Below are positions 11,354 to 14,419 of a stretch of 16,058 nucleotides of DNA, piece by piece. Position numbers and translations under genes: made by a program. Below the pieces are notes generated by a model. That model saw only the letters and a list, made by a program, of their open reading frames with translations. It did no database searches and was not told the origin of the DNA. The DNA lies in the NCBI GenBank assembly GCA_000002435.2, contig AACB03000008.1; one strand, given 5' to 3'. Every line of letters begins with the position of its first letter. Position 1 is the first letter of the stretch. The DNA is from Giardia intestinalis. Lineage: Eukaryota.

Positions 11354-14300
11354 GTGATATGCACAAAGGCCAGTAGTGGAGTGTGCACTGCTTGTAAGGC
11401 AGATAACGGCCTGTTCAAGAACCCGGCTGCAACACCAGAGAAGGGTAGCGAGTGCATCCTCTGTCATGATGTCAATGGGGCAGATGGATATACAGGGGTG
11501 GCTAACTGCGCCACATGTACGGCACCAAGTGGTAGTCCAGGAGCGGCCACGTGTGATACCTGCAGAGATGGATACTATAAGAACGCTCAGACATGTGAGA
11601 AGTGCCAAGGGAACTGTGCCACCTGTGAGACTGAGGCGACCCACTGTACCTCTTGTAAGGGAAATACGTTCCTGAAGACTGATACTAACACTTGCGTAGA
11701 GGCTGGTCAATGCACTGGAAATAAGTACCCCGACCCAAGCACCGGCAAGTGCACAGCTTGTAACGCTCAAGAAGTGGGGATAGATGGATGCGACACATGT
11801 GAGTATGATACGACGCTGCAGAAGCCGAAGTGCCTGACATGTACTGGTAAGATAGTCAAAGAAGAGGCCGACGGGACGACCACCTGCATTGCTGAGGGGG
11901 CTTGTACCCAAAACGGGAACGATGGTCCGAACTTTCTAACTGAACCGAACAAAAAGTGCATTCTCTGCAGTAATAATGTAGATTCAACCCCTGGCAATAC
12001 AGGTGTTCTTGGTTGTAGCACATGCTCTAAAGCTAATTCTGGTACAAATCCTCAGTGCAAGACATGCCTCGACGGATACTACAATAGCGCAAATAGTGGT
12101 AGTGGTACCGCTACATGCACAGTCTGTGGCGAGAATTGCGCCACCTGCACTCAAGCTGGCAATAATCAGTGTACTAAATGCAAGCCTGGATTCTTCATGA
12201 AAGGCAGTGGTCCTACTGGTGAGTGCCTTCCTTGTGATAATGCACAGGAGGGCATCGATGGATGTGCTGAGTGCACTGGTCCTGCAGGATCCCTCAAGTG
12301 TACAAAGTGCAAGCCTAACAGGAAGCCCGTTGGAACCTCAGACAACTATACATGCACAGAGAAGACCTGCGAGGATGAGACTGCGTGTGGTGGTACCTCT
12401 GGAGCTTGCAATGCCATAGTAATTGATACTGATGGCAACACAAAGCACTACTGTTCATACTGTGGAGATAGCTCACAAGCTCCTATCGATGGTCTCTGTG
12501 CTACTGATAAGAAAGGCAATACTGCTTGCACTAGTCATACCTGTCCCTCTTGTGCTGCTAACTACTTCCTCTATATGAACGGCTGTTATAGTGTATCAGC
12601 TCAACCTGGCAACTACATGTGCAAGAAAGCAGATAATAATGGGATATGCACAGAGGCGGCCAACAATAAGTACTTCATAGTCCCAGGGGCATCCAATCAG
12701 AATCAGTCTGTACTAGCATGTGGTAACCCCCTAGGCACACTAGTAGATACTAAGGCATACGTGGGGGTCGAGGGCTGCTCCCAGTGTACAGCCCCAGTAG
12801 CTCTAACAACAGTTGGTATGACTGTCGCTGTGTGTACTGCCTGTGACAGTGGTAAGAAGCCCAACAAGGGTGGTAGTGGGTGTGTGACATGCTCTGTGGG
12901 TGATTGCAAGAGCTGTGTGGTGGACAATATATGTGGGGAGTGTGTTGATGGATTCTACTTTAAAGCTGGCGATGCACCCAGCTGTGTTAGCGCAGAGGCG
13001 TGTACTAATGAGGAGGGCTTCTTCATCGACGCTACCGAGAAGAAGTGCACCGCGTGTGCAGATGATAATTGCGCTGTGTGCGTGGCCAAGGAGCAACAGA
13101 AGTGCAGCCTGTGTAAAACGTCTGGGACCAAGAAGTACCTGAAGAAGGATGGCGAGTCCACAACCGGCACGTGCGTTGACACAGCTGGTTGTCCGGCAAC
13201 CCACTACGTTGATGAAGAAGCAAAGGAGTGCAATACATGTGTGTCGGCTGGAACAACTGACTGCACCACTTGTGAGAAAGGCGCCAACGGAGTGGTTTGT
13301 AAGACGTGTACGACTGATACGAAGACCATCTTTGGTCTCAACAGAAAGTCGTGCGTTGCTAGTTGCCCTGCTAACTCTACCCCCAAGGCCACCGGACAGG
13401 ATAGCCAAGTGTGCGAGTGCAACGAAGGACTCCAACCTAATACTGAATCGACTGAATGCCAACCAATCAGTAACTGTAACACAGAGCACTGTTTGGAGTG
13501 CACCAGTGAAGGTGCCGATAAGGAGGTCTGTACAAAGTGTCTGTCTGAGTACTACCTCACCCCAACCAGTCAATGCGTATCTGACTGCACGACCCTCAAG
13601 GGCTACTACGGAAATGACACTGACAGAAAGTGCAAGAAGTGCAACGATGCGTGCGTAGAGTGCAAGGGTGAGGGCGCTGATAAGTGTACGGCTTGTCCTG
13701 CTGGGAGGATGCTTCAGTATACAGATGCTGATACTCCTGCCAATGGGGGCACGTGCATGAACCAGTGCAGCGTGAGTTCTACAAACGATGGATGCGCAGA
13801 GTGTGGGGCTCAGATAGGAGGAACTGCATACTGCTCAAAGTGCAAGAACACTCAACAGGCACCACTGGATGGCAACTGTGCGGCCAATACGCGAACACGA
13901 TTTTGCACTACGGTGAGTAATGGAGCATGCACTCAATGTGAAAATAACTACTTCCTCAAAGATGGCGGTTGCTATCAGACAGATAGACAGCCTGGCAAGC
14001 AAGTGTGTACTACAGTGCAGGGAGGAAAATGTACAAAATGTGCCAGTGGTCTAACGGCTGATAATGGCGATTGTTCCAATAAAAGGTGCCATCTTAGCTG
14101 CGAGACATGCACGGCTGCTAACGACGCTAACGCCTGTGCTACATGCAGCACTGGATATTACAAACCGCAGAGTGCTGGGACAAAGTGTAATCCGTGCTCT
14201 GAGGGGCTCGCTGGGTGCAGGCAGTGCACGGTGTCATCCACCGGTGCGTTCATGTGCTTCGTGATGGGCGACGGCACTGGCGACAACACCGGCGGAAGCG

Positions 14301-14419
14301 TCAACAAGAGCGGGCTCTCCACGGGGGCCATCGCGGGCATCTCCGTGGCTGTGGTCGTTGTCGTGGGGGGCCTCGTGGGCTTCCTCTGCTGGTGGTTCAT
14401 ATGTAGAGGGAAGGCGTGA
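11354..14419 (+). CDS. Double-length VSP-family protein, unit 7 (1021 codons) with two GGCY-type cores. No in-frame ATG or signal peptide
   Basis: The first core has YFLYMNGCYSV (about 12556-12590) and ends ...CKSCVVDNICGEC. That position precedes the TM in unit 5 but here continues into a second Cys-rich body with YFLKDGGCYQTD (about 13948-13983). It ends ...NKSGLSTGAIAGISVAVVVVVGGLVGFLCWWFICRGKA* at 14419. Confidence 0.8.
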   Translation: MICTKASSGVCTACKADNGLFKNPAATPEKGSECILCHDVNGADGYTGVANCATCTAPSGSPGAATCDTCRDGYYKNAQTCEKCQGNCATCETEATHCTSCKGNTFLKTDTNTCVEAGQCTGNKYPDPSTGKCTACNAQEVGIDGCDTCEYDTTLQKPKCLTCTGKIVKEEADGTTTCIAEGACTQNGNDGPNFLTEPNKKCILCSNNVDSTPGNTGVLGCSTCSKANSGTNPQCKTCLDGYYNSANSGSGTATCTVCGENCATCTQAGNNQCTKCKPGFFMKGSGPTGECLPCDNAQEGIDGCAECTGPAGSLKCTKCKPNRKPVGTSDNYTCTEKTCEDETACGGTSGACNAIVIDTDGNTKHYCSYCGDSSQAPIDGLCATDKKGNTACTSHTCPSCAANYFLYMNGCYSVSAQPGNYMCKKADNNGICTEAANNKYFIVPGASNQNQSVLACGNPLGTLVDTKAYVGVEGCSQCTAPVALTTVGMTVAVCTACDSGKKPNKGGSGCVTCSVGDCKSCVVDNICGECVDGFYFKAGDAPSCVSAEACTNEEGFFIDATEKKCTACADDNCAVCVAKEQQKCSLCKTSGTKKYLKKDGESTTGTCVDTAGCPATHYVDEEAKECNTCVSAGTTDCTTCEKGANGVVCKTCTTDTKTIFGLNRKSCVASCPANSTPKATGQDSQVCECNEGLQPNTESTECQPISNCNTEHCLECTSEGADKEVCTKCLSEYYLTPTSQCVSDCTTLKGYYGNDTDRKCKKCNDACVECKGEGADKCTACPAGRMLQYTDADTPANGGTCMNQCSVSSTNDGCAECGAQIGGTAYCSKCKNTQQAPLDGNCAANTRTRFCTTVSNGACTQCENNYFLKDGGCYQTDRQPGKQVCTTVQGGKCTKCASGLTADNGDCSNKRCHLSCETCTAANDANACATCSTGYYKPQSAGTKCNPCSEGLAGCRQCTVSSTGAFMCFVMGDGTGDNTGGSVNKSGLSTGAIAGISVAVVVVVGGLVGFLCWWFICRGKA

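Follow-up and report, generated by a model that had tools for sequence, protein, structure and literature searches.

A long VSP unit in a Giardia intestinalis linear array is probably a silent, 5'-truncated, mosaic psiVSP cassette

The reading frame at positions 11354-14419 (plus strand), referred to here as unit 7 (U7), is interpreted as a silent, 5'-truncated psiVSP cassette whose long type is known and whose mosaic sequence arose through recombination among VSP genes. A probability of roughly 0.8 is given to this reading. U7 is of a known kind and is essentially a known unit, already catalogued. Its value is mainly one of correct annotation; the appropriate label is a long psiVSP cassette with a clade II tail, in place of a local fusion or a novel "double-core" protein. 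It is also a clean example of VSP mosaicism, with three boundaries and a 3' block common to an expressible VSP, and could be used to test sequence exchange between silent arrays and expressed genes in Giardia.

The window, which is the whole 16,058-nucleotide stretch of DNA analysed, is a head-to-tail linear array of eight VSP cassettes, all on the plus strand, from G. intestinalis assemblage A (WB-like). As in the linear-array psiVSP cassettes of Adam et al. (2010), the spacers are short (58-78 nucleotides). A poly(A)-signal consensus follows every stop codon, at the same position as behind U7. In the published description of Giardia linear arrays, neighbouring genes are separated by about 60 bp, and the downstream members have neither an Inr nor a typical 5' end (PMC2996952). 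An ATG, a signal peptide, and an Inr are absent from all units of this array, and the Inr motif [CT]AATGTT has zero occurrences on both strands of the whole window; among complete WB VSPs, 135 of 136 carry the Inr (C/T)AATGTT at the start codon (bioRxiv 10.1101/2022.03.07.483299). The GTGATAG sequence is present in 19 copies in the window and is confined to the spacers. Stop codons occur in all frames of the spacers, as judged from three of the seven, with spacer ends located by a regular expression. Some blocks within the array are 96-98% identical to one another. The U5 ORF is VSP S7, by exact look-up in the protein collection.

U7 is one unbroken VSP frame of 1021 codons when counted from the GTG at 11354, and of 1023 codons when counted from the stop codon ahead of it. 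Lengths among the other units are 587-620 codons, in line with the roughly 600 given in the first-pass annotation. The frame begins directly behind the spacer stop codons, at WSVICTKAS, and the ATG start and signal peptide that mark a complete VSP are absent from its opening. Complete relatives have about 110 further N-terminal residues, signal peptide included. The first in-frame ATG of U7 is at 12197 (codon 282), and the ORF that starts there encodes 740 aa with a mass of 76.3 kDa, 91 Cys, and 29 CXXC. From its lack of an ATG, signal peptide, or Inr, it is inferred that U7 is not expressed as such.

The translated frame contains 12.5% Cys and 45 CxxC motifs. The Pfam VSP family PF03302 matches U7 with an E-value of 1.7e-84 and 284 bits (cut-off 31.4), and matches its second half alone with an E-value of 3.4e-70; both are far above chance. 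Two GGCY-type motifs are present, as first described: an NGCY variant (YFLYMNGCYSV) and, 462 residues downstream, a GGCY (FLKDGGCYQTD) that lies 151 residues before the C-terminus. There is a single hydrophobic segment (residues ~985-1016) followed by CRGKA (14402-14416), which is the C-terminus of a VSP. Proteins of the HCMP/CRMP type are Cys-rich type I membrane proteins with a cytoplasmic tail other than CRGKA, and annotation of U7 as an HCMP is ruled out by its tail.

With one module some 150 residues before the C-terminus, one further N-terminal, and one TM, U7 has the layout of the two-GGCY VSP class. This class accounts for 64 of 136 complete WB VSPs and is the commonest (bioRxiv 10.1101/2022.03.07.483299). 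The first-pass annotation had regarded a common standalone class of single-TM VSPs with two GGCY motifs as evidence against its fusion proposal, and this is largely what was found, P0001 being among such VSPs. The "double" core is a relative term. All units of the array are 5'-truncated, and the complete relatives of the normal-length units (P0124 and P0125) have two GGCY motifs each, one N-terminal and one middle.

The middle (A-type) and membrane-proximal (B-type) modules of U7 align with an hhalign probability of 99.5% and 39% identity, and on this profile comparison are judged to be homologous and long diverged. Recent duplication of a GGCY module inside U7 was considered and ruled out by this low identity.

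The features of U7 are listed in Table 1. Its anatomy and its mosaic boundaries can be seen directly. The head shares merely 36-90% identity with the other units, and its best relatives are U8, U3, and P0124 at residues 1-80, P0124 at residues 80-280, P0125 at residues 240-400, and U5, U8, and P0121 at residues 440-520. Nucleotide similarity (blastn) stops at 12942 for U5 and at 12924 for U8, which agrees with the earlier observation that U7 is collinear with a normal unit up to about 12930. Weak protein similarity to U5 persists to ~12995, in the form ..EC-xxGFxxxxxxxxSCVS, and is the last similarity to the short units. The matching point in U5 had correctly been placed near the TM; its distance is about 25 codons and not 30. 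The clade II-type body has no match elsewhere in the window (blastn, word size 7). It had been described as having no close copy there, with limits of 12960 and 14280 that are now corrected to those in Table 1. Similarity to the array units returns at 14298, where the linker, TM, and CRGKA are 83-93% identical in DNA.

Table 1. Features of unit 7 and its flanks, in positions of the window.
Feature	Coordinates	Strand	Description
Inter-unit spacer upstream of U7	11276..11353	+	AGTGAAT (poly(A)-signal consensus) at 11283; GTGATAG-like repeats with stop codons; no ATG start, signal peptide, or Inr
Clade I-type head, mosaic	11354..12900	+	Best relative shifts along the length
Middle (A-type) GGCY module	12392..12853	+	NGCY at 12578-12589, then YF-VPGA...QSVLAC...GVEGCSQCTAP extension common to all array units
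Mosaic boundary zone	12901..12995	+	96% block with vsp59/P0121 starts after residue 516 (nt 12901)
Clade II-type body	12943..14297	+	CxxC repeats and membrane-proximal GGCY module; no DNA match elsewhere in the window
Block common to P0001	13172..14416	+	96% protein identity (401/421 residues) to P0001 residues 244-658
Membrane-proximal (B-type) GGCY module	13778..14062	+	GGCY at 13964-13975; canonical module of most VSPs
Conserved 3' end of U7	14306..14419	+	TM (~985-1016), CRGKA, stop codon; 83-93% DNA identity to 3' ends of other units
AGTGAAT, Giardia poly(A)-signal consensus	14427..14433	+	8 nt past the U7 stop; equal position behind every unit

Three sharp block boundaries are present in U7, at ~12064, 12901, and 13171. 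Blocks shared with the WB paralogues vsp11 and vsp59 were delimited at the protein level only. Against vsp59 (P0121), identity is 96% past residue 516 and 62% before it (chi2 = 168). Against P0001, identity is 96% past residue 606 and 39% before it (chi2 = 255). Over 12943-14297, U7 departs from vsp11 and vsp59 at about 4% of residues; U7-specific variants include CFVMGDG against CLEMGDG and SSTNDG against SPANDG.

Comparison with other VSPs and HCMPs, as proposed in the first-pass annotation, yielded protein relatives of U7 in vsp59, vsp11, P0136, and a group of long VSPs. The vsp59 gene (GL50803_40571; P0121, XP_001707661.1, 887 aa) has the same architecture and junction as U7 and is a clade II member of a WB array. 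Like U7, it sits among clade I units in a head-to-tail array and is without an Inr; Adam et al. (2010, PMC2996952) remarked that gene 59 represents clade II within an array of clade I. The two heads differ, with that of U7 just 62% identical, and form different mosaics. Grouped with vsp59 in clade II of the WB linear arrays are vsp112 (GL50803_34357, 887 aa) and vsp249 (GL50803_118132, 740 aa) (PMC2996952). The length, mass, Cys, and CXXC figures of vsp249 equal those of the U7 ORF that begins at the internal ATG. From these summary figures, and not from sequence, U7 would be essentially vsp249. The exact 740-aa ORF has no identical entry in the protein collection.

These records bear on the possibility of an assembly artefact, in which a clade I unit and a vsp11-like gene were misjoined, with the conserved 3' end or a brief stretch of common sequence as the bridge. 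VSP linear arrays are hard to assemble and are often found at contig ends (PMC2996952), and the blocks of high mutual identity inside this array could favour such an error. The junction is nevertheless also present, at 96% and not 100% identity, in P0121/vsp59, a WB protein that was assembled and annotated independently, and the 2010 catalogue contains a linear-array entry of 740 aa for which the mass, Cys, and CXXC values are the same. The frame is intact over the join. A misjoin is very improbable and was ruled out on the finding of the junction in independent records.

The closest relative of the second half of U7 is P0001, which contains two GGCY motifs. It was equated with vsp11 (GL50803_32933, 658 aa) by length, mass, Cys count, and CXXC count, the computed values being compared with the catalogue rows. 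It is a complete clade II VSP with a signal peptide and the Inr CAATGTT, and it heads a linear array on chromosome 4. Residues 244-658 of vsp11 correspond to residues 607-1021 of U7 at 96% identity and include the membrane-proximal GGCY module, the stalk, the TM, and CRGKA. Unlike U7, it carries a signal peptide and an N-terminal GGCY module; the latter has diverged, at 32-45% identity to the A module of U7. The clade I repeat head of ~340 residues is absent from vsp11.

Complete VSPs of 956-1075 aa align end to end with U7. The alignment with the assemblage E protein P0122 (isolate P15, 1075 aa) spans 100% of U7, at 47% identity. P0122 and the assemblage B protein P0132 (isolate GS, 956 aa) are both collinear with the whole of U7, with identical module order and 40-47% identity. 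P0122 and P0132 differ from U7 in being complete, with a signal peptide and an N-terminal GGCY module, and in being standalone genes with non-VSP neighbours at a locus that is syntenic between assemblages E and B. Complete long VSPs are directly observed as standalone genes. The middle and membrane-proximal modules of these three-module VSPs are present in U7, and the N-terminal module is absent through the 5' truncation that is common to all units. The junction of P0122 differs in detail, with a U3-type stalk ahead of the B-type body. From its A module to its end, U7 is also collinear with the complete standalone proteins P0002 (DH) and P0003 (P15), and with P0001. In a census of 136 full-length hits, with N, A, and B denoting the N-terminal, middle, and membrane-proximal modules, the architectures were B (40), NA (37), AB (32), and NAB (3). 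The suggestion that U7 represents a separate lineage of large VSPs that was inserted into the array is supported by the end-to-end alignment and by the standalone, syntenic occurrence of these genes.

The junction of U7 is itself directly observed at other loci. The continuity across it (CKSCVVDNICxEC-xDGxYFKAGxxPSCVSAEx-C) recurs in the WB protein P0136, which is annotated as an HCMP; the alignment with this protein ends 17 residues before the P0136 C-terminus. Two long VSPs of assemblage B, P0126 and P0132, have a looser form of the junction sequence.

The first-pass annotation had offered, as its other explanation, an in-frame deletion between adjacent units. Such a deletion would have removed the linker, TM, CRGKA, stop codon, spacer, and next 5' part, joining a clade I unit to a downstream clade II unit either here or in an ancestor of vsp59, vsp112, and U7. 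The clade I part of U7 is a near-complete ectodomain, and U7 diverges exactly where the short units run from SCVS into the SGANRSGLSTG linker. The clade II part is without a signal peptide and first GGCY module of its own, and mixed clade I and clade II arrays are known (vsp10/vsp11, and vsp59 among vsp57-65). At the join, however, there is no spacer, poly(A)-signal, TM, or GTGATAG relic, and no second hydrophobic segment is present in the frame. The second half is unlike any part of an array unit. The junction is 90-96% in common with vsp59 of another array, and is therefore not private to this one; equal continuity is found in P0136, where the downstream part is different, and in the assemblage B long VSPs. 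The standalone, syntenic long VSPs of assemblages E and B also stand against a fusion. Deletion between neighbours is not supported for this array, and a fusion of adjacent units in either setting is given only a small chance. A fusion that joined a clade I ectodomain to a clade II body may have taken place long ago, at the origin of the lineage; the position of the join, at the extreme end of the clade I ectodomain, would also be expected from an old two-gene fusion.

The long form may instead be ancestral, with the clade I units having lost the ~430 codons that would separate SCVS from the membrane-proximal linker and U7 remaining undeleted. This order of events agrees with the presence of the long form in assemblages A, B, and E and its synteny in B and E, with the retention by most VSPs of a B-type module ~150 residues from the C-terminus, and with the run of a U3-type stalk into a B-type body in P0122. 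However, the tail of U7 matches vsp11 at 96% identity and its head matches the array units at only 36-90%, which points to recent block exchange and not to simple retention. Derivation of the short units from the long form is possible but doubtful as the account of U7, and it is compatible with a mosaic cassette.

In the favoured reading, U7 belongs to a long VSP architecture. In the complete form, three GGCY modules (N-terminal, middle, and membrane-proximal) are separated by two runs of CxxC repeats, and the last module is followed by the TM and CRGKA. The signal peptide and N-terminal module have been lost from U7, as from every unit of the array, and the clade II-type body and membrane-proximal module are retained, unlike in its clade I neighbours. 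The patchwork would be the product of exchange between VSP genes, by segmental recombination or by gene conversion, the pieces being a head of clade I array type, a 3' block of ~1.5 kb that is 96% identical to vsp59, and, from residue 606, a segment that is 96% identical to vsp11.

A more tentative proposal is that the U7 tail of ~1.25 kb (13172-14416), vsp11, and the vsp59 and vsp112 tails form one recently homogenised, sharp-edged block. If true, G. intestinalis would offer a concrete example, open to dating, in which silent array cassettes and an expressible VSP have undergone segmental gene conversion, and the 2010 "cassette reservoir" hypothesis would be directly testable with these four loci.

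The cassette-reservoir hypothesis for Giardia linear arrays was put forward by Adam et al. (2010; PMC2996952). VSP switching in G. intestinalis is considered to be epigenetic or post-transcriptional, and a donor function of the cassettes has not been demonstrated (PMC2996952; bioRxiv 10.1101/2022.03.07.483299). If U7 acts at all, it would give sequence to expressible VSP genes or take up sequence from them, probably as a recombination reservoir. In G. muris, the psiVSP arrays are untranscribed and have been proposed as sources for gene conversion (Xu et al. 2020, PMC7641422). The array containing U7 resembles the psiVSP arrays of G. intestinalis (Adam et al. 2010) and G. muris (Xu et al. 2020) in its promoter-less, signal-peptide-less, head-to-tail cassettes and short spacers. 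It also shares with them a pattern of mosaic relationships suggestive of segmental gene conversion. The silent VSG arrays of Trypanosoma brucei are an analogous system.

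U7, seventh among the VSP (variant-specific surface protein) units in the window (11354-14419, + strand), is 1021 codons long (1023 from the upstream stop), compared with 587-620 in the other units. It contains two GGCY-type motifs, NGCY at 12578 and GGCY at 13964. Its sole hydrophobic segment, at residues ~985-1016, is followed by CRGKA. DNA similarity to unit U5 ends at 12942, ~25 codons from the TM in U5, and returns at 14298 with the conserved 3' end; the sequence between (12943-14297) has no match in the window (blastn, word size 7). The description in the first-pass annotation, of a unit collinear with a normal one to ~12930 and continuing into a second half unique in the window, is accurate. 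The Pfam match of U7 is VSP PF03302 (E = 1.7e-84), and the database relatives are all Giardia intestinalis/duodenalis VSPs.

The eight long ORFs of the window are all on the + strand, head to tail, and a conserved TM + CRGKA closes every unit except U6. In U6, a 2-nt deletion within the TM coding region (~11238-11242) puts CRGKA (11258) out of frame. U2 has a disabling frameshift close to its 5' end (~2100-2120). At a distance of 8 nt behind every stop lies AGTGAAT, a match to the Giardia poly(A) signal consensus, with GTGATAG-like repeats downstream of it in spacers of 58-78 nt. The three spacers examined contain stop codons in all three frames. Unit frames start right behind the spacer stops at '..W-S-[VE]-I-C-T-K-A..'. 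The complete relatives P0124, P0125, and P0122 have ~110 extra N-terminal residues, consisting of a signal peptide and an N-terminal GGCY module, that stop at '..PGSEICT', exactly where the window units start. An ATG start, signal peptide, and initiator element (Inr) are absent from all eight units, and [CT]AATGTT does not occur within the window. This layout is the linear array organization of Adam et al. 2010, in which the spacers have a mean length of 60 bp and the downstream members have no Inr (PMC2996952). Read from its first ATG, the U5 ORF (7774-9390) is 100% identical to variant-specific surface protein S7 (VSP S7; GenBank AAN52102.1) and a 99.6% match to the partial WB 2007 protein XP_001703925.1, which points to a WB-type assemblage A1 origin.

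Coordinates of spacers, shared blocks, and standalone long VSP loci
Feature	Position	Remark
Spacers	1859-1918, 3784-3852, 5710-5766, 7579-7638, 9394-9453, 11276-11353, 14420-14494	poly(A)-signal consensus + GTGATAG-like repeats
U3/U8 block	3784-5327 vs 14420-15969	96-98% identity range
U4/U6 block	5710-7291 vs 9394-10975	96-98% identity range
U1/U6 block	1296-1858 vs 10715-11275	96-98% identity range
Complete long VSP P0122 of P15	L001 6001-9228	syntenic non-array locus
Complete long VSP P0132 of GS	L002 6053-8923	syntenic non-array locus

The GGCY domain is ~90 residues long, with the fixed Cys framework YCSxC...P[IL][DN]GxC...CxxCxxx[YF]FLxxGGCYxxxxxPGxxxC. It has N-terminal (N), middle (A), and membrane-proximal (B) flavours (U7 12392-12853 and 13778-14062; N-termini of P0124, P0125, and P0122). 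When the profiles of A and B are compared, hhalign reports a probability of 99.5% at E = 1.9e-22, and the Cys framework is the same; the two are one kind of domain and old paralogues. A recent duplication as their source is ruled out by a profile identity of just 39%. Among 136 typed full-length hits, a sample biased by the queries used, 40 are B only, 37 are N+A (what the 'normal' array units look like when complete), 32 are A+B, and three (P0122, P0132, and P0035) are N+A+B. In published counts, 49 of the 136 complete WB VSPs have one GGCY, 64 have two, and four have more; a single GGCY is membrane-proximal and extra copies are nearer the N-terminus (bioRxiv 10.1101/2022.03.07.483299). The mean is 1.4 motifs per VSP, counted over 182 motif-carrying VSPs (Adam et al., PMC2996952). 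Two GGCY motifs in a single-TM VSP are therefore the rule, and U7 is not odd in having them. On module content, U7 appears to be a 5'-truncated version of the rarer three-module long class.

Two origins had been suggested for U7, a fusion of adjacent array units or a distinct large-VSP lineage. P0122 (P15, complete, 1075 aa) has 47% identity over 100% of U7, and its gene is flanked by non-VSP genes, as is that of P0132 (GS, 956 aa). The two proteins are collinear over their full length, and the ankyrin-repeat genes downstream of their loci are 80% identical between the two assemblages. The long architecture therefore predates the assemblage split, and it also exists outside arrays. Two complete standalone VSPs, P0002 (isolate DH) and P0003 (P15), are collinear with U7 from its middle GGCY module onwards to the end, and this collinear part takes in 'SCVxExxCxxEEGFF..KKCxxCxDxNCAVC' just past the supposed fusion point.

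The junction itself recurs. P0121 (XP_001707661.1, 887 aa), found by a whole-unit search, contains '..CKSCVVDNICEECVDGLYFKAGETPSCVSAEACTNEEGFFIDATEKKC..'; its identity with U7 is 62% up to residue 516 (nt 12901) and 96% beyond it. In length, mass, Cys, and CXXC it matches vsp59/GL50803_40571, and the neighbouring P0135 and P0140 correspond to vsp60 and vsp65. The Fig. 4C legend assigns gene 59 to clade II and vsp57, 58, and 60-65 to clade I, and another clade II array member of 887 aa, vsp112, is tabulated on chromosome 5 (Adam et al., PMC2996952). WB P0136 (annotated HCMP group 1) likewise has 'CKSCVVDNICEECKDGLYFKAGETPSCVSAEEC', and the body downstream of it is a different one. A looser form of this continuity is seen in P0126 and P0132, long VSPs of assemblage B. 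The junction is not private to this array. A fusion of adjacent units is not supported; the lineage reading is, and its substance had been published before. The lineage may have originated in an old fusion that joined a clade I ectodomain and a clade II body. The join lies at the point from which short units run into their TM linker. No evidence links such an event to this array. It is equally possible that the polarity is reversed and the short units are deletion derivatives.

Over 94% of its length, the translated second half of U7 (12929-14416) shares 90% identity with P0001. This 658-aa WB protein is a complete VSP that has a signal peptide and two GGCY motifs, one at residue 95 and one at 508 (the A+B class). 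In a maximum chi-square scan the boundary falls after U7 residue 606 (nt 13171): identity is 39% on its left and 96% (401/421) on its right. In length, mass, Cys, and CXXC, P0001 has exactly the values of vsp11/GL50803_32933, a clade II gene that has the Inr CAATGTT and, on chromosome 4, heads a linear array (Adam et al. 2010, PMC2996952). U7 is almost certainly catalogued already: its ORF from the first ATG (12197) has exactly the figures tabulated for the clade II array member vsp249/GL50803_118132 (740 aa, 76.3 kDa, 91 Cys, 29 CXXC; PMC2996952).

U7 is a mosaic. Its best relative changes from U8/U3/P0124 to P0124, P0125, U5/U8/P0121, P0121, and finally P0121 with P0001, with sharp block boundaries at the protein level (maximum chi-square scan). 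Non-adjacent units share nearly identical blocks of 0.56-1.6 kb, spacers included, which points to duplication or conversion of segments inside the array. U7 is probably silent and may be a sequence reservoir at most; Inr-less downstream members have been hypothesized to be cassettes that are not expressed, or else discarded genes (Adam et al. 2010, PMC2996952). Gene conversion or segmental recombination between VSP genes could have produced the mosaic blocks, a mechanism proposed for G. intestinalis in the same study and for the VSPs of G. muris (Xu et al. 2020, PMC7641422).
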